Shown: piece by piece, positions 13,589 to 39,917 of the stretch
Layout of the letters: every line of letters begins with the position of its first letter
Position numbering within the stretch: position 1 is the stretch's first letter
Assembly (NCBI GenBank): GCA_001917855.1
Contig: MNEU01000063.1
Location: forward strand, 1-61,551
Origin: Armatimonadetes bacterium 13_1_40CM_64_14
GTDB lineage: Bacteria; Sysuimicrobiota; Sysuimicrobiia; Sysuimicrobiales; Kaftiobacteriaceae
Direction of reading: 5' to 3'
Length of the DNA: 61,551 nt
The notes under the pieces: model-generated
What the model was told of the DNA's origin: nothing
The model's input: the letters and a program-made list of their open reading frames with translations, nothing else
The model's database searches: none
Program-made: the position numbers and the translations under genes

Positions 13589-13924
13589 TCAACGCGGGGG
13601 GCTGGCGGGGCGGGCCCCCAGGCGGCTGAGGACCAGGCGGTAGCCGTCGGCGCCATACTCGAGGAAGCGGCGGACCCGGCTGATCGTTGCACTGCTGGCG
13701 CGGACGCGCTGTTCAACCTCCTCGTAGGTGCGCCCGGTGAACAGCAACCGCGCGATCTCCAGCCGCTGGGCCAGGGCCTTCACCTCCCCGATGGTGCACA
13801 CGTCTTCGAGGAAGCGGTAGCACTCCTCAACGGTCTTCAGCGTGAGCAGAGCCCGGCACAGCTGGTCGACCTGCGCATCTTTGAGTTTCGGATTTACCGC
13901 GGGGCGACTGTGACTCGTGGGCAT
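13589..13924 (-). CDS. TrpR-like YerC/YecD family DNA-binding protein (candidate histidine-operon regulator)
   Basis: 111 aa with the pattern LLTLKTVEECYRFLEDVCTIGEVKALAQRLEIARLL..G.TY.E.....AS.ATISRV, typical of YerC/YecD. Sits directly upstream of hisZ on the same strand. Confidence 0.75.
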   Translation of the reverse strand: MPTSHSRPAVNPKLKDAQVDQLCRALLTLKTVEECYRFLEDVCTIGEVKALAQRLEIARLLFTGRTYEEVEQRVRASSATISRVRRFLEYGADGYRLVLSRLGARPASPPR

Positions 13925-14113
13925 GCCATACTCCCTTCGGCGCGCTCTACTCCTTCACTCTTGCAAGGCATCCCCCTCTGTTCGAGTCGCCTTCGGTGTG
14001 ATCCCCGAGCACATCGGAGCGCGGACCCCGGGCGAGCTCGCAGAACCGAGAAACGGGGCGAAATTGGGCGCTAGCGCGCGTGCGAGAGAGCCAGCATCCG
14101 ACAACGGCGGATA

Positions 14114-14127
14114 CGTACGAAAGTTCG
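14114..14127 (+). promoter_or_regulatory. putative LexA operator (SOS box) CGTACGAAAGTTCG
   Basis: One mismatch from the Gram-positive Cheo-box core CGAAC-N4-GTTCG. Lies in the yerC/lexA intergenic region. Confidence 0.5.
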
Positions 14128-14161
14128 GTATCATAGCATCCCTACGCGGCCTGCTTGGGCT

Positions 14162-14191
14162 TTGATAGTCGTACATACGTTCGCCTATTAT
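14162..14191 (+). promoter_or_regulatory. lexA promoter: TTGATA-N18-TATTAT with SOS box CGTACATACGTTCG (14170-14183) in the spacer
   Basis: The -35/-10 hexamers and the box are read directly. The -10 lies 19 nt upstream of the lexA ATG. Confidence 0.6.
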
Positions 14192-14209
14192 GGTGGCAGG
14201 GGTGAGACC

Positions 14210-14863
14210 ATGGCTGCTTCGCTTACTGATAGGCAGAGACAGGTTCTTGAGCACATCGCCGCATCCATCCGGCGCAATGGCATCGTCCCATCCGTCCGCG
14301 AGATCGGGCAGGCGTTAGGGATGCGCTCGCCGTCCACAGTCCACCAGCACCTCACCGCCTTGGAGCGCAAAGGGTACATCAAACGGGACGGCGACCGGAT
14401 GCGGGTGCTGGAGATTTTGGATCAGCGGATTCTTCTCGACGGCAACCTCGTGTCGCACCTGCCCCTCGTGGGGCGCGTGTCCGCCGGCGTGCCCATCCTG
14501 GCCGAGCAGAACATCGAGGAAATGATTCCCGTTCCCCGCACGATGGTTGGCTGGCAGGACGAGAACTGTTTCTTGCTGACGGTGCGCGGCGACAGCATGA
14601 TCGACGCCGGCATCCACGAGGGCGATATGGTAGTCGTCCGGTCACAGCCGAGTGCGGATCCAGGAGAGATTGTGGTGGCGCTGCTCGGGGAGGAGGCGAC
14701 CGTGAAGCGGTTGGCCATCCAGGACCAGCGCGTGTGCCTGATGCCCGCGAACCCGCGCTACAGCCCGATCCTTGACCACTTTGAGATTATCGGGAAGGTT
14801 GTGGGGCTCCTGCGCCGTTACGGGGGAAGCCGCATGCCGCGCCATGGCGCAGGACTCTCATGA
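14210..14863 (+). CDS. lexA: LexA repressor (SOS regulator, S24 self-cleaving peptidase)
   Basis: Winged HTH (LTDRQRQVLEHI..., SVREIG), Ala-Gly cleavage site (VSAGVP), catalytic GDSM Ser and VKRL Lys. Confidence 0.93.
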   Translation: MAASLTDRQRQVLEHIAASIRRNGIVPSVREIGQALGMRSPSTVHQHLTALERKGYIKRDGDRMRVLEILDQRILLDGNLVSHLPLVGRVSAGVPILAEQNIEEMIPVPRTMVGWQDENCFLLTVRGDSMIDAGIHEGDMVVVRSQPSADPGEIVVALLGEEATVKRLAIQDQRVCLMPANPRYSPILDHFEIIGKVVGLLRRYGGSRMPRHGAGLS

Positions 14864-15072
14864 GCGTCCGGGCGGTGGCGATCCGCGGGACGAAGTCGGC
14901 CCGGCTGCGTGTGCTGCCACGCACGCTATCCGCGCCGGCAGCAGAGACAACCTGGCGCCCTCGGCTCAGTTTGATGGCGCGGCTGCTGGATGACCACGAC
15001 CTCGTCAACGTGAAGCTGGTGTTGGTGACCCTGCTGCTCATTGTGGCGATGGCATTGGAGGTGCCCTGGTAG
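14860..15072 (+). CDS. small Arg-rich protein with a C-terminal transmembrane helix (70 aa), hypothetical
   Basis: ATGA overlap with the lexA stop and TAGTG overlap with the next start. Very high GC3 in this frame. C-terminal VKLVLVTLLLIVAMAL helix. Confidence 0.5.
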   Translation: MSVRAVAIRGTKSARLRVLPRTLSAPAAETTWRPRLSLMARLLDDHDLVNVKLVLVTLLLIVAMALEVPW

Positions 15073-15554
15073 TGGTTCACGCCGTGCAAGTCTACACGTG
15101 TGTGACCACGCGAGATGGACGCGCCGCGCTTGGCGTGGTGATCCGCGACGTGGATGGCCAAGTGCTGCGCGTCAGCGGCCGCGCCATCGGAGACGCATCC
15201 CTCGAGGTCGCTTCCTACCGCGCCGTCTTGCACGGTGTCTGGCGCGCTAAACGGTTGGGTGCGCAGCGCGTGCGGGTCTTCACCGAGAATCCCGAGATCG
15301 TCGCGCAGCTCGAGGGCCACGACGAGGTGCCGGCGGACTTGATCGGCCTGTATCTGCAGACGAAAGCCATGCTGAATGCGTATCGGTGGAGTCGTGTTGA
15401 GCTGATCGTCCGGGACCTCAATGCCGACGCCGCGCTCGCGGCGGCGGGATCCTTAGAGCAGGCGACGGCACCGACGGGTGCCGCAGACGAGGATGACCTG
15501 GACCTGCCCTTGTGGCGCTGGGCGGAGGACGCAGCCGCCGGCGCGAGCCGCTAG
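15072..15554 (+). CDS. RNase H-like (RVT_3 / RNase HI fold) domain protein, catalytic residues apparently degenerate
   Basis: Pattern ..GVVIRD..G......IG...........YRAVLHG...A..LG...V.V.TE...IV.QL.. resembles the RNase H-like domain family. Start is coupled to the upstream small ORF. Confidence 0.6.
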   Translation: MVHAVQVYTCVTTRDGRAALGVVIRDVDGQVLRVSGRAIGDASLEVASYRAVLHGVWRAKRLGAQRVRVFTENPEIVAQLEGHDEVPADLIGLYLQTKAMLNAYRWSRVELIVRDLNADAALAAAGSLEQATAPTGAADEDDLDLPLWRWAEDAAAGASR

Positions 15555-15673
15555 CGCCCCGTTAGCGTAATTCTTTCTCCATTGCATAGATCGCGAATCC
15601 GTGCCGGACCCATCGTGCGTCGCGTGCACAGGGACTCCCGCTGGGAAGTGGAAATCCCGGGGCGGAGGCAGCG

Positions 15674-16195
15674 ATGGACACGGCCGCGATCCAACCGCTC
15701 CTGGATGAAGGCGAACGCCTGTTGGAGCGTGGCGACCTCGAAGCCGCCGAGCGAACGTTTCGCCGCGCCGTGCTCACCGCACCGGACTCCGCTGTTGCCC
15801 ACAGCAAACTCGGAGTCGCGCTGGCTCAGCAGGGCCGAGCCGATGAGGCGATTGCAGAATTCACCACAGCCGTCGCGCTCCAACCCACCTACGCGCCAGC
15901 GTACAGCAACCTCGGCAACGTCTACCGCGAAGAAGGCATGCTCGCCGAGGCGCTGGCGGCTTACGAACGGGCCTTAGCGATCGATCCCGAGTACTGGATC
16001 GCCCACAGAAACCTCGGCATTCTTTACAAGCAAATGGGGCGGCTCGTGGACGCGGTCGAACACTTCAAGAAGGCCACACGACTGTCCGTGCGGCCCCCGA
16101 CCGACACCGCCAAGCGGCGGGGCTGCTTAGCTGCGCCGGCAGTTCTCCTCGCAGGTGTGGTGCTAGCGGCCGCGCTTGCGCGCCACCTGCTGTGA
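15674..16195 (+). CDS. TPR-repeat protein with a C-terminal membrane anchor
   Basis: About four 34-residue TPR units (A..Y.NLGNVY...G...EA...YERAL..DP) and a hydrophobic tail LAAPAVLLAGVVLAAALA. GGAGG RBS. Confidence 0.75.
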   Translation: MDTAAIQPLLDEGERLLERGDLEAAERTFRRAVLTAPDSAVAHSKLGVALAQQGRADEAIAEFTTAVALQPTYAPAYSNLGNVYREEGMLAEALAAYERALAIDPEYWIAHRNLGILYKQMGRLVDAVEHFKKATRLSVRPPTDTAKRRGCLAAPAVLLAGVVLAAALARHLL

Positions 16196-36192: not shown

Positions 36193-36222
36193 TTGACAGG
36201 CGTACATTTGTTCGCGTACTAT
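36193..36222 (+). promoter_or_regulatory. dnaB promoter: TTGACA-N18-TACTAT with SOS-box-like CGTACATTTGTTCG (36201-36214) in the spacer
   Basis: Read directly. Same spacing and layout as the lexA promoter at 14162-14191. Confidence 0.55.
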
Positions 36223-36254
36223 GCAATCGCCAGCACCGAACGGAGGTTCGCTGA

Positions 36255-39200
36255 GTGTCGATTCCCACTTCCTCCATTGAACGGGTTCCCCCTCAGAACC
36301 TGGAAGCTGAGCAGGGGGTGCTCGGTTCGATGCTGCTGGACCGCGACGCCATCGCGCGTGTCGTGGAACTCGTCCGCTCCATCGACTTCTACCGGGATGC
36401 CCACCGCCGCATTTACGACACCATTGCAGAACTGTTTGAGCGCGGGGAGCCCGTGGACCTCATCACCGTCACCGATCGCCTGCGCGACAAAGGGCAGCTG
36501 GATGACGTCGGGGGGGCGACCTACGTGACCGCGTTGCTCAACACCGTCGCCACCGCTGCCAACGTGGAATACTACGCCCGCATCGTGCTTCAAAAGTCGA
36601 TGCTCCGCCAGCTCATTACGGCCGGGACCGAGATCGCCCACCTGGGGTTCGAAGGCGAGAATGACGTAGAACTGCTGGTCGATCGCGCGGAGAAGCTGGT
36701 CTACAGCATCGCCAACCGCCGCTTGATTCAGGAGTTTCTGCCGATTCGGGAGATCCTCAAAGAGAGTTTCGAACGCATCGACCGCCGCTACCAAGACAAA
36801 GGGACCGTCACCGGCGTGGCAACGGGGTTCACGGATATCGACCAGCTCACCAGTGGCTTGCAGCCTGCCGACCTGGTCATTGTTGCCGCGCGGCCGGCGA
36901 TGGGGAAGTGCCTGAAGTACGATGCGGAGATCGTGGACGCGCGCACAGGAGAAGTCTGCACGATCCAGGAGATCGTGAGCCGGCGGACAGCACAGTTGTG
37001 GACGCTCGATGCGCAGGGGCGGCTGCACACAACGACCCCGTCGCAATTCGTCGATGACGGGATCAAGCCGGTGTACCGGGTGCGGACCGCCTCCGGGCGC
37101 GAGGTGGAGACCACGCGATCGCATCCGTTCCTGACCCCGTCCGGGTGGAGACCGCTCGCCGAGGTGGCGGTGGGGGACCTGATCGCGGTGCCCGCGCGTC
37201 TGGCGGTCTTCGGCGACAACGACTTGCCGGCCTATGAGGTGAAATTGCTGGCCTATCTGTGCGCAGAGACGATGCCGACCTCCCCGGGGCTCGCGCACGA
37301 CTATGCCGACGCCGTTGCGGTCGGGGAAGCGATTCGCGCGGCGACCAAACCAGCCTCGCATCCTGCAGATAAATCAGCGTCGCTGCCGGCGGCTCCTACC
37401 TACCATCCGATCCGAGGTGCGGCGGTGCCGGAAGCCGTGGGCATGCTGCTGGCGCGCCATCGGGCGCTGGCCGGTCCCGCGCAGTCCCGGGCGATTCCTG
37501 GTCTCGTGTTCACGTTACCCCGCGCCAAGCTCGCACTCTTTCTCTCGCGGTTACTGGCATGCACGGGAGGCGTCGAGACCGAGCAGAGCGAGGAAAACGC
37601 CGCAGACATGCAGGTGGCCGTACGCTGCGCGGTGCCGTCGCCGCGAATGGCTCGACAGATACAACATCTGCTGCTGCGCTTTGGCGTCGCATCGACGGTC
37701 CAGGGAACCGCTCTTGCAGCCACGGGTGTGCACGCCCGCATGCTATTGCGCGAAGTCGGGGTCATGGGGTGGGAGCGGCTGCGGACCTGGGCGCGTCATG
37801 ATCAGACCCAGTTGCTGGAGACTCCGGATATTCTGTGGGATCCAGTTGCGACCATCGAGTATACGGGCGACGTCCAAGTGTACGACCTCACAGTGCCCCA
37901 GACCCACAACTTCATAGCCGGCGACGTGTGCGTCCACAACACGACGTTTGCGATGAATATCGCGCAGCATGCCGCGATTCACTATCAAGTCCCGTGCGCC
38001 ATCTTCAGCCTGGAGACGTCCAAAGAACAGCTCGTGCAGCGCTTCCTGTGCGCAGAGGCGGAGGTCGACGGCAGTAAGTTGCGCACGGGATTCCTGACCG
38101 ACGCCGACTGGCCTAAACTGGCCCGGGCCATGGGCCGGTTGTCGGAAGCGCCGGTGTTCATCGACGACTCCGCCACCATTTCGGTAATCGAGATGCGCGC
38201 CAAGGCTCGGAAACTGAAGGCGGAGCACGGCTTGGGGCTGATCGTCGTGGACTATCTCCAGATGATCCAATCCTACAAGCGCACGGAGAATCGCACCCAG
38301 GAAATTTCGGAAATCGCGCGCTCGCTGAAGTCGCTAGCCAAGGAACTCGACATCCCGCTGATCGCGATCTCGCAGCTGTCACGCGCGGTGGAGGTGACCG
38401 GCACGAGGCGGCCGATGTTGTCACATCTTCGTGAATGCGTGACTGCTGATACAGTCGTCTGGGATGCCGATACGGGACGGCGGTGGACGGTTGGAGAACT
38501 AGCCGCTAGGCGAAGCTGGCCGCGGCTGCTGTCGCTAGATTCCCGTGGCAGACTCATCCCTGTTAGGCCAGCGAGTGTTTTTGAGAAGGGCGAAAATGAG
38601 GTTTTCGAGGTGAGAACCAGCACGGGTAGGCGGCTGAAAGCCACGGCTAATCACCCTGTTCTGACCCCTGACGGCTGGAAGAAGATCCATGAACTACGCC
38701 CCGGATCCCTTCTTGCTGCGGCTCGTCGCCTGCCTGTGTTCAACCGGGTGGGGGCAACCATAACCGCTGGTCGCGCCAAGGTTCTTGGTTATCTCATTGG
38801 GGATGGCAGTTATAAGCGCCATAATAGCGTCTCATTTTGTAGTTCTGATCGCCTTACGTATGAAGATTGTGTTGCAATTGCTGAGGGTGAATTCGGCATC
38901 GTCTCCAGGCATCGACCAGTAAGAGGGATTCCTGTAGCAGCGTTCGTTGCAATCTATCCGTACGCGGGTAGCGTAATGCGTGGCCGACGTTTCGGGAATC
39001 CGCTTAAGTCGTGGCTCCGGGAGTTAGGAGTAGAGGGACAAATTTGTTATACGAAACGGTTCCCGCACCAAATCTTCGACCAAGTCGATGATTCGGGCGC
39101 GCGGGCCTTGCTGCGGGCGCTATTTTCGACCGATGGATGCCTTACACGTCGCAGGTACCGGAACGGGACCTTTCTTTGGTCACTTCATTATGACACTGTG

Positions 39201-39917
39201 AGCCATGGGCTCGCGGATGACGTGCGCGACCTGCTATTGAGATTTAAAATCGTCGCGCAGATGAGCTCAGGATACAAGAGCAAGGTTGCAAGAGTGCCTA
39301 TCTATCGGGTTTGCGTTGAGGACTCCCGCCATCTCGCCCGATTCTGTGAGCAAATCGGCATAGAGGGAAGAAAGCCGTTCCTTGTCGACGAGTGTGCCGC
39401 AGAGCTTGTAACTCGACGCTCCAAGTCCCAAGTTGATCGGTTGCCCCTCGCTGCGACTCGGGCACTGTGGGATCGGAAGGAGAGTCTGGGGCTATCATGG
39501 CGGGAGTTGGGTTTCAGACTTCAGACGGGGAAGACGCTGGACCGATCACGCGCTGCCATCTTGGCCGAACGCCTGAGGGCGAGTGACGTTCTGGAGCAGG
39601 CGACGAATGACATACTGTGGGATCGCGTAGTCGAAATCACACCAAGAGGTATCGAGCCAGTTTTCGATCTGGTCATGCCGGGCACGCATAACTTTATTGG
39701 GAACGGAATCGCCTGCCACAACAGCGGGGAGCTCGAGCAAGTCGCCGATCTTGTCCTATTTATTTACCGCGAAGACTACTACAACCCGGAGACCGAGAAG
39801 AAGAACATCGCCGAGCTCATCATCGCCAAGCACCGCAACGGCCCCATCGGGATGATAGAGTTGTTCTTCCACAAGGAGCACAGCCGCTTCGGGAACCTGG
39901 AAAAGCGGAGGGTCTAA
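36255..39917 (+). CDS. dnaB: replicative DNA helicase DnaB precursor containing two inteins (mature helicase ~447 aa)
   Basis: DnaB N domain (PPQNLEAEQGVLGSML). Walker A split as ARPAMGK|..|TTF. Motif RRPMLSHLRE|..|SGELEQVADLV split by the second insert. C-terminal IIAKHRNGP. Confidence 0.95.
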   Translation: MSIPTSSIERVPPQNLEAEQGVLGSMLLDRDAIARVVELVRSIDFYRDAHRRIYDTIAELFERGEPVDLITVTDRLRDKGQLDDVGGATYVTALLNTVATAANVEYYARIVLQKSMLRQLITAGTEIAHLGFEGENDVELLVDRAEKLVYSIANRRLIQEFLPIREILKESFERIDRRYQDKGTVTGVATGFTDIDQLTSGLQPADLVIVAARPAMGKCLKYDAEIVDARTGEVCTIQEIVSRRTAQLWTLDAQGRLHTTTPSQFVDDGIKPVYRVRTASGREVETTRSHPFLTPSGWRPLAEVAVGDLIAVPARLAVFGDNDLPAYEVKLLAYLCAETMPTSPGLAHDYADAVAVGEAIRAATKPASHPADKSASLPAAPTYHPIRGAAVPEAVGMLLARHRALAGPAQSRAIPGLVFTLPRAKLALFLSRLLACTGGVETEQSEENAADMQVAVRCAVPSPRMARQIQHLLLRFGVASTVQGTALAATGVHARMLLREVGVMGWERLRTWARHDQTQLLETPDILWDPVATIEYTGDVQVYDLTVPQTHNFIAGDVCVHNTTFAMNIAQHAAIHYQVPCAIFSLETSKEQLVQRFLCAEAEVDGSKLRTGFLTDADWPKLARAMGRLSEAPVFIDDSATISVIEMRAKARKLKAEHGLGLIVVDYLQMIQSYKRTENRTQEISEIARSLKSLAKELDIPLIAISQLSRAVEVTGTRRPMLSHLRECVTADTVVWDADTGRRWTVGELAARRSWPRLLSLDSRGRLIPVRPASVFEKGENEVFEVRTSTGRRLKATANHPVLTPDGWKKIHELRPGSLLAAARRLPVFNRVGATITAGRAKVLGYLIGDGSYKRHNSVSFCSSDRLTYEDCVAIAEGEFGIVSRHRPVRGIPVAAFVAIYPYAGSVMRGRRFGNPLKSWLRELGVEGQICYTKRFPHQIFDQVDDSGARALLRALFSTDGCLTRRRYRNGTFLWSLHYDTVSHGLADDVRDLLLRFKIVAQMSSGYKSKVARVPIYRVCVEDSRHLARFCEQIGIEGRKPFLVDECAAELVTRRSKSQVDRLPLAATRALWDRKESLGLSWRELGFRLQTGKTLDRSRAAILAERLRASDVLEQATNDILWDRVVEITPRGIEPVFDLVMPGTHNFIGNGIACHNSGELEQVADLVLFIYREDYYNPETEKKNIAELIIAKHRNGPIGMIELFFHKEHSRFGNLEKRRV
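36909..37940 (+). mobile_element. DnaB intein 1 (344 aa) inserted in the Walker A P-loop between GK and T; endonuclease region looks decayed
   Basis: Starts CLKYDAEIV. Block B TRSHPFLT. Ends YDLTVPQTHNFIAGDVCVHN followed by Thr. Central LAGLIDADG-like remnants LLAYLCAET and FLSRLLACTGG. Confidence 0.9.
38436..39722 (+). mobile_element. DnaB intein 2 (429 aa) inserted between LRE and SGELEQ; intact LAGLIDADG homing-endonuclease motifs; lower GC
   Basis: Starts CVTADTVVW. Block B TANHPVLT. LAGLIDADG motifs VLGYLIGDGS and LLRALFSTDGC. Ends FDLVMPGTHNFIGNGIACHN followed by Ser. Confidence 0.92.

Follow-up and report, generated by a model that had tools for sequence, protein, structure and literature searches.

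A conserved lexA gene cluster encodes a predicted tail-anchored microprotein and a probable pseudo-enzyme of the RNase H fold

In the genome of Armatimonadetes bacterium 13_1_40CM_64_14, the gene for the SOS repressor LexA is followed directly by two small genes that recur as a pair in related bacteria. We analysed the 61,551-nucleotide contig on which they lie (MNEU01000063.1, positions 1 to 61,551; hereafter the window) and focus here on lexA, on a small open reading frame (sORF) that probably specifies a tail-anchored membrane protein, and on rnhL, a gene for an RNase HI-fold protein whose active site is degenerate. We give even chances to the proposal that lexA-sORF-rnhL is a LexA-autoregulated SOS operon hard-wiring two uncharacterised effectors to the repressor. 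The sORF-rnhL pair is likely a new damage-response effector, and the role we favour for it is that of a membrane-tethered SOS checkpoint or adaptor. What is new here is the conserved cargo of an SOS lexA operon; that this cargo works by a new mechanism has a modest chance. The literature that we searched held no description of a lexA-sORF-rnhL module, and no curated family covers the microprotein.

The three genes run in the same direction and overlap (Table 1). lexA and sORF share 4 nt, the ATGA at 14860-14863, while sORF and rnhL share 1 nt, the last base of the TAG stop codon (15070-15072) being the first of the GTG start (TAGTG, 15070-15074). A preliminary description of this DNA, made from its letters, had claimed these coordinates and both overlaps, and all of them can be read in the sequence. 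The Shine-Dalgarno sequence of rnhL sits within the sORF codons for a conserved Leu-Glu-Val end, and together with the 4-nt and 1-nt overlaps this leaves no room for an internal promoter. In one related locus (L012), sORF and rnhL are in the same frame with a TAA between them. A 123-aa protein (P0066) presents an in-frame chimera of sORF residues 1-47 and roughly rnhL residues 86-160; it is without the transmembrane (TM) helix and most of the RNase H fold, and could have arisen by natural deletion or through an assembly error.

Table 1. Features of the lexA region, in window coordinates
Feature	Coordinates	Strand	Basis and remarks
Distal LexA (Cheo-type) box, predicted operator, CGTACGAAAGTTCG	14114..14127	+	exact match to CGWAC-N4-GTTCG
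Sigma-70-type lexA promoter, TTGATA-N18-TATTAT	14162..14191	+	10/12 consensus matches
Proximal LexA box, predicted operator, CGTACATACGTTCG, in promoter spacer	14170..14183	+	exact match to CGWAC-N4-GTTCG
lexA, 217 aa	14210..14863	+	ATG 14210, TGA 14861-14863; TIGR00498, PF01726, PF00717
sORF, predicted 70-aa tail-anchored membrane protein, no named family	14860..15072	+	ATGA overlap with lexA, conservation, dN/dS, AlphaFold2
Shine-Dalgarno sequence for rnhL, GGAGGTG	15057..15063	+	read from sequence; ends 8 nt 5' of GTG 15072
rnhL, 160-codon RNase HI-fold (RVT_3) protein, degenerate active site	15072..15554	+	Pfam, AlphaFold2, Foldseek
Terminator-like hairpin at rnhL stop	15549..15567	+	consensus scan; weak evidence
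Possible fourth gene, three-TPR protein, 173 aa, predicted tail-anchored	15674..16195	+	TPR families

The arrangement is conserved well beyond the window. Twenty related loci were fetched through rnhL from NCBI metagenome-assembled genomes (MAGs), JGI and Logan, under the labels 'Armatimonadota', 'Bacillati bacterium ANGP1' and 'bacterium'. The preliminary description had proposed a survey of the lexA-small ORF-RNase H-like triad, and among these loci the triad is present in every one that reaches far enough: the order lexA-sORF-rnhL occurs in L001, L002, L004-L017, L019 and L020, and L003 and L018 end inside or just before sORF, so that lexA is not covered. It holds even where rnhL identity is only 31-40%. 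Flanking genes vary from locus to locus, with the his operon and yerC in the window and gcvP plus a PALP enzyme, or a downstream M50 peptidase, elsewhere; plain synteny therefore cannot explain the arrangement. Logan contigs of 4-13 kb from two runs marked 'RNA?' (X15 and X16) carry an unbroken lexA-sORF-rnhL-TPR series (TPR, tetratricopeptide repeat) from a relative that is ~91% identical. These two runs, compared over window positions 13900-16166, are small, and each bears a single organism name rather than a metagenome label, so a cultured or enriched relative of the clade may exist in public data.

The pair also occurs away from lexA. When the 'LERVV' flavour of the small protein was used to seed a metagenome scan, four loci came back (L021-L024), and in all four sORF is directly followed by a gene for a seemingly dead RNase H-like protein. 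The three complete RNase H-like genes among them end in a [DE]LPLW tail, and the gene of L024 is cut before its end. L021 has the order lexA-sORF-rnhL, with a lexA that is 58% identical, and a TPR gene is present; L022 and L023 have neither lexA nor a TPR gene within 3.5 kb of the pair. The occurrence of the pair without lexA in L022 and L023 makes sORF-rnhL a module in its own right. The conserved unit is thus the sORF-rnhL pair, whether lexA is present or not.

Upstream of the pair, L022, L023 and the short L024 have in common a conserved sequence, GAAGGTTAAYNGRAGGTGAAGG (L022 3170-3300; L023 3160-3290; L024 270-320). Some 60-90 nt downstream, nearer the gene, L022 and L023 also have its reverse complement (CCTTCAC..TTAACCTCC), so that the two copies form an inverted repeat. 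This arrangement could act as a structured leader or as an operator for some other regulator.

By its sequence, the first product of the cluster is an intact, bona fide LexA. It scores 212.3 bits against TIGR00498 (cut-off 110.95) and contains a winged-helix DNA-binding domain (PF01726, 3.1e-23) and an S24 peptidase domain (PF00717, 7.6e-33). The Ala-Gly self-cleavage site (GRVSAGVP), the serine in RGDSM and the lysine in ATVKRL are all present in the translation. Past the S24 domain LexA has a C-terminal extension of ~14 residues that ends ..YGGSRMPRHGAGLS (window 14825-14860); the DNA of this extension holds a weak Shine-Dalgarno sequence and the start of sORF, and its length and sequence vary among relatives.

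The second gene bears several marks of a coding frame. GC content at its codon positions 1/2/3 is 0.69/0.47/0.84, in line with the very high third-position GC that the preliminary description had taken as support for real coding. Variability among relatives at these positions is 0.39/0.28/0.48, lowest at position 2 and highest at position 3. The Nei-Gojobori ratio of nonsynonymous to synonymous substitution (dN/dS) ranges from 0.18 to 0.52 and is below 1 in 10 of 10 pairs; conserved peptide motifs persist while the underlying DNA differs freely. Run against 1.84 billion representative proteins, a profile built from 14 members found 157 clusters (50% identity) with E<=1e-3; almost all are 35-105 aa long and match at the C-terminus. 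The product itself had no Pfam, NCBIfam or PADLOC match. By these measures sORF is a genuine coding gene under purifying selection. We considered whether its conservation is a by-product of an antisense ORF at 14787-15320 and rejected this, as the order of variability, with position 2 lowest, fits the plus frame.

What this gene encodes is most probably a tail-anchored, single-pass membrane protein. The family core reads WxRFxDDRxL[IV]x[LV]K, followed by ~15 hydrophobic residues and then L-E-[VR]-[PV]-x, whereas the N-terminus is variable and rich in arginine and proline, with MSVRAVAVR a frequent start. In the window protein, residues 1-46 hold nine Arg/Lys against three Asp/Glu, and the highest 19-residue Kyte-Doolittle mean (2.61) falls at residues 48-66, after which only EVPW remains (the end reads LEVPW). 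AlphaFold2 leaves residues 1-33 disordered and builds a single helix over 34-67, with a predicted local distance difference test score (pLDDT) of 85-97 over 41-70. An Arg-rich N-terminal part and one C-terminal TM helix, both claimed earlier by eye, are borne out by these numbers. The protein has one C-terminal TM helix, no N-terminal signal peptide and a predicted cytoplasmic bulk, and the layout is kept in all homologues, the helix ending 3-4 residues from the C-terminus behind an Arg-rich N-terminus. Because the modelled helix spans 34-67, the hydropathy peak lies at 48-66 and four residues follow it, we read the product as tail-anchored, with the conserved DDR motif presumably cytoplasmic and juxtamembrane.

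The third gene, rnhL, encodes a protein with a well-supported RNase HI fold, a five-stranded sheet with helices A, B, D and E. It matches Pfam RVT_3 (PF13456) at E 1.1e-12 (48.4 bits, cut-off 21.6), and its AlphaFold2 model is confident (pLDDT 86.5, predicted template modelling score 0.81). Foldseek aligns the model with Halobacterium RNase HI (4e19, E 3.5e-13) and with the N-terminal domain of Rv2228c (3hst, E 8e-13) at template modelling (TM) scores of 0.88-0.91, normalised to the target, and root-mean-square deviations (rmsd) of 1.3-1.4. By sequence, too, 3hst is the solved structure that matches best (E 6e-16). The profile, structure-model and topology checks that the preliminary description had suggested thus returned an RVT_3 match, a confident RNase HI model and, for the sORF product, a single TM helix.

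Three of the four catalytic carboxylates of this fold are missing from RnhL. We set the catalytic positions by hidden Markov model (HMM) alignment to 3u3g, 4h8k, 3hst and 4e19, together with an alignment to the canonical proteins P0135-P0137. Asp1 corresponds to C10 in the window protein (serine, cysteine or alanine in the family), the catalytic Glu to S48 (serine, alanine, threonine or leucine) and Asp4 to A121 (alanine), and none of these positions is ever acidic. Asp3 corresponds to E72 and is glutamate or aspartate in most members (threonine or histidine in two divergent ones). MAFFT moves the Asp1 position by two residues, and the alternatives, Y8 and T9, are likewise non-acidic. Around the catalytic Glu the window has ASYRAV where solved RNases H have AEYEAL or AEYRGL, and around Asp3 it has FTEN against MDS. 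Positions Asp1, Glu and Asp4 are non-acidic in all ~40 family sequences examined, including the more distant second flavour. The nearest canonical relatives, P0135-P0137, keep D-E-D-D intact, and the LPLW tail described below is absent from them.

These alignments indicate that RnhL is a pseudo-enzyme, catalytically degenerate across its family; since it fails the D-E-D-D test that defines RNase HI, it should not be filed as one. The by-eye reading of a cysteine or threonine at the first Asp, a serine at the Glu and TEN in place of TDS agrees with the HMM alignment, and the loss of the fourth position (A121) had gone unmentioned. Two findings that would have told against the earlier description, loss of the 70-codon frame in relatives and an intact tetrad, were not seen: the frame is conserved, no family member keeps the tetrad, and the view of a degenerate RNase H-like protein holds. 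That view had gone further, to a protein that binds nucleic acids without cutting them; this has no particular support, because the fold domain has an isoelectric point (pI) of 6.8 and is not basic.

Other parts of RnhL are conserved instead. The family retains a helix, GLYLQ[TA][KR]A[ML]LNAYR, that is in part common to Rv2228c, as well as several arginines. Behind the fold domain comes a disordered acidic linker (pLDDT <50 at 133-141) and then an invariant [LM]-P-L-[WF], in which P146, L147 and W148 are invariant or nearly so. This tail agrees with the clamp-binding motif QL[SD]LF at three of five positions (L, L and the aromatic), with D, E, S or A replacing the Q. It also resembles the C-terminal peptide of FtsZ, D-I/V-P-x-F-L-R, with which it shares the D/E, I/V/L and P positions as well as the aromatic one. 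For comparison with LPLW we looked for an FtsZ signature or FtsZ-tail-like peptides in the window and found none, and RnhL gave no match to a PADLOC defence system. Public records label relatives of RnhL 'reverse transcriptase-like', 'ribonuclease HI' or 'probable phosphoglycerate mutase', annotations that are misleading for this family.

Upstream of lexA, a promoter and two LexA-type boxes suggest how the cluster is controlled. The distal box lies 56 bp upstream of the proximal one. Exact CGWAC-N4-GTTCG sites number 4 in the window against 0.37 expected, and none of 100 shuffles reached 4. In relatives, CGTACATA[CT]GTTCG or CGTACGTATGTTCG is located 32-42 nt 5' of the lexA start at 14 loci; L008 carries the box too, its lexA start not having been located by the script. 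A second upstream box matches exactly in L001, L006 and L007, other relatives have it in degenerate form, and L021 has two CGTAC-type boxes upstream. In all the printed upstream regions of relatives the box is flanked by TTGAT(A/G)...TATAAT-like hexamers. The operator, CGTAC-N4-GTTCG, is a Cheo type whose left half has an A replaced by T. The Cheo box is the LexA operator of Gram-positive bacteria, and by this likeness we read the lexA promoter as a probable autoregulated SOS promoter and the boxes as its predicted operators.

The other two of the four sites in the window belong to the promoter and ribosome-binding site of an intein-bearing dnaB. This gene (36255-39917), for a replicative helicase with two intein-like insertions, is preceded by TTGACA-N18-TACTAT (window 36195-36255). 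The spacer holds the LexA-type box CGTACATTTGTTCG (36201-36214), and a second box, CGAACGGAGGTTCG (36237-36250), is a perfect palindrome over the ribosome-binding site. A LexA-controlled dnaB would be unusual.

The far end of the operon is harder to place. The terminator-like hairpin at the rnhL stop is unconserved, in that relatives have no hairpin followed by a U-tract at the matching place; the end of the operon is therefore uncertain, and so is the membership of the TPR gene downstream. A three-TPR protein of 170-176 aa is encoded 45-172 nt 3' of rnhL in the window and in L001, L002, L004, L017, L019 and L020, each of which was checked. These proteins end in ..GCL and a hydrophobic helix, and the L021 homologue has a like end (..GCLSAGGVAVLL..), so they too are probably tail-anchored. 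TPR domains commonly bind short acidic peptides, and this makes the neighbour a candidate receptor for the RnhL tail.

Two further observations concern this gene. In the translated TPR homologues an R-x-G-C-L motif stands directly before the C-terminal helix, and a cytoplasmic tail-anchored TPR protein with an invariant cysteine at the membrane boundary would be unusual. Just 5' of the TPR start, a conserved GC-rich hairpin-like element, ACAGGGA..CCCG..GGAAGTGGAAATC.CGG..GCGG (window 15637-15668; also L001 and L002), could act as a structured leader or in regulation.

How might such a pair act? We propose that DNA damage would lead to RecA-stimulated self-cleavage of LexA and derepress the promoter, and that all three proteins (LexA, microprotein and pseudo-RNase H) would then be made from a single mRNA at a fixed ratio. 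Anchored in the membrane, the microprotein would expose its WxRFxDDRxL[IV]xxK helix to the cytoplasm and dock the soluble pseudo-enzyme, which would act as an adaptor rather than as a nuclease. The acidic linker and LPLW peptide of RnhL could then capture a third protein, for which the beta sliding clamp, a divisome protein that binds the FtsZ tail and the adjacent tail-anchored TPR protein are candidates. The outcome would be a damage-induced brake on division, replication or both, ended once new LexA re-represses the operon.

Taken whole, this checkpoint, in which the microprotein holds a dead RNase H at the membrane while the LPLW tail sequesters the clamp, a receptor of the FtsZ tail (FtsA or SepF, for example) or the TPR protein and so arrests replication or division, is a tentative proposal and rather unlikely to hold in every part. 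We know of no SOS effector that works through a pseudo-enzyme adaptor. Several points weigh against the operon proposal as a whole. The contigs of X15 and X16, the only runs marked 'RNA?', are assembler products of a close relative and may be DNA. The LPLW tail is without the Gln of QL[SD]LF and without the basic residues that follow the FtsZ C-terminal peptide. Known division inhibitors mostly act through extracytoplasmic or purely intramembrane parts, whereas the sORF product has only 3-5 residues outside the membrane and is unrelated to them in sequence. As part of the lexA operon the pair would also be expressed at a basal level together with LexA, an unusual trait for a toxic checkpoint protein. 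The docking of the sORF product on RnhL and the capture of a partner are themselves predicted steps.

The pair might instead modulate the SOS circuit itself, being always made with LexA and acting on LexA cleavage or turnover, on the RecA filament or on recovery, as DinI, RecX and DdcA do. Membership of the same operon and, in the window's clade, translational coupling to lexA would fix the ratio of both proteins to LexA, and a position 3' of lexA gives basal plus induced expression. We nevertheless consider this unlikely, for the pair also stands without an adjacent lexA in L022 and L023, and Pfam, NCBIfam and PADLOC show no likeness of either protein to a known modulator of RecA or LexA.

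Alternatively, the sORF product could be a membrane-depolarising dormancy toxin of the TisB or DinQ kind that the RNase H-like protein neutralises or chaperones, an explanation that we find quite improbable. It draws on E. coli, for which single-TM peptides induced by the SOS response are known (PMC3567139, PMC11575346). A small hydrophobic single-helix protein behind a LexA box would fit such a class, and its strict pairing with a second protein recalls a toxin-antidote pair. The sORF proteins, however, measure 60-100 aa against 27-29 aa for type I toxins, and they have a conserved cytoplasmic motif that is charged as well as a long N-terminus that is disordered; there is no sign of an antisense RNA or of a translational lock, and constitutive basal co-expression with lexA would be costly.

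There is little room for the idea that RnhL is still a nuclease, or a specific binder of RNA/DNA hybrids (R-loops), that uses a non-canonical site to process or mark hybrids at damaged forks and is localised by the sORF protein; we judge it very unlikely. Its RNase HI fold is indeed well preserved, the third carboxylate is Glu or Asp in most members, and an acidic residue usually stands at position 45, a helical turn ahead of the lost Glu. Yet no member examined, down to 31% identity, has an acidic residue at Asp1, Glu or Asp4, RNase HI mutagenesis has established that losing Asp1 is by itself essentially inactivating, and the fold domain, at pI 6.8, is not basic. Finally, high-GC genomes do yield many long spurious ORFs, several of which overlap this region on both strands, but that the 70-codon frame is a non-coding spacer or such an artefact, leaving only lexA and the RNase H-like gene as real, is scarcely credible and effectively refuted by the uniformly low dN/dS, the constraint on codon position 2 and the many clusters found by profile.

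We therefore return to the membrane-tethered checkpoint or adaptor as the favoured role, and to what the module means whichever role it plays. Little is known of SOS regulons beyond the model phyla, and from lineage to lineage the checkpoint proteins that they induce are unrelated. Here a conserved, unnamed two-protein module is defined and found physically tied to lexA across a clade of uncultured soil bacteria (MAGs labelled Armatimonadota or ANGP1), which puts sORF-rnhL forward as a definite candidate for the damage checkpoint still missing in these lineages. rnhL offers a case of an enzyme fold recycled as a predicted non-catalytic adaptor with a short linear motif. The LexA operators, the acidic linker and LPLW tail, the DDR motif, the TPR neighbour and the occurrence of the pair away from lexA all go beyond the preliminary description. 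The small size of both proteins puts them within reach of expression tests in laboratory hosts.

Among known systems, the closest parallel for the small protein is a functional class rather than a family. YneA, SosA, SidA and ChiZ are established as small single-pass membrane proteins that are induced by SOS and block division (compare PMC6051672, PMC4211646). Like YneA of Bacillus subtilis, SosA of Staphylococcus aureus, SidA of Caulobacter and ChiZ of Mycobacterium, the sORF product is predicted to be small and single-pass, and its gene stands beside lexA or behind a LexA box; the Gram-positive members of the class have a Cheo-type operator, as the window does. The sORF protein differs from them in resembling none by sequence or domain (it contains no LysM and matches nothing in Pfam), in being apparently tail-anchored with almost nothing outside the membrane, and in being always paired with a pseudo-RNase H. 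Its gene is co-directional with lexA and translationally coupled to it, whereas theirs are divergent. A division-inhibitor role for the sORF protein is thus suggested by analogy. With TisB and DinQ it would have in common an SOS-controlled, single-helix hydrophobic product; those are 27-29 aa long, controlled by antisense RNA and without a protein partner, in contrast to the conserved cytoplasmic motif and long N-terminal region of the sORF family.

RnhL has the fold of type 1 RNases H, namely the N-terminal domain of Rv2228c from Mycobacterium tuberculosis (3hst), the Halobacterium enzyme (4e19) and LC11 (3u3g/4h8k), with TM scores of 0.85-0.91 (target-normalised) and rmsd of 1.3-2.1, and it has the LYxQxxAL helix in common with them. 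These enzymes have the full D-E-D-D and cut RNA/DNA hybrids, whereas in RnhL three of the four are replaced (C/S, S/A and A); RnhL in turn has the acidic linker and LPLW tail and is without the phosphatase domain of Rv2228c. As an operon, lexA-sORF-rnhL most recalls lexA-dinF of Escherichia coli, in which lexA likewise comes first behind two operators for its own product and a membrane-protein gene comes next. DinF, however, is a large transporter of the MATE family, whereas the cargo in the window is a 70-aa microprotein together with a predicted pseudo-enzyme.

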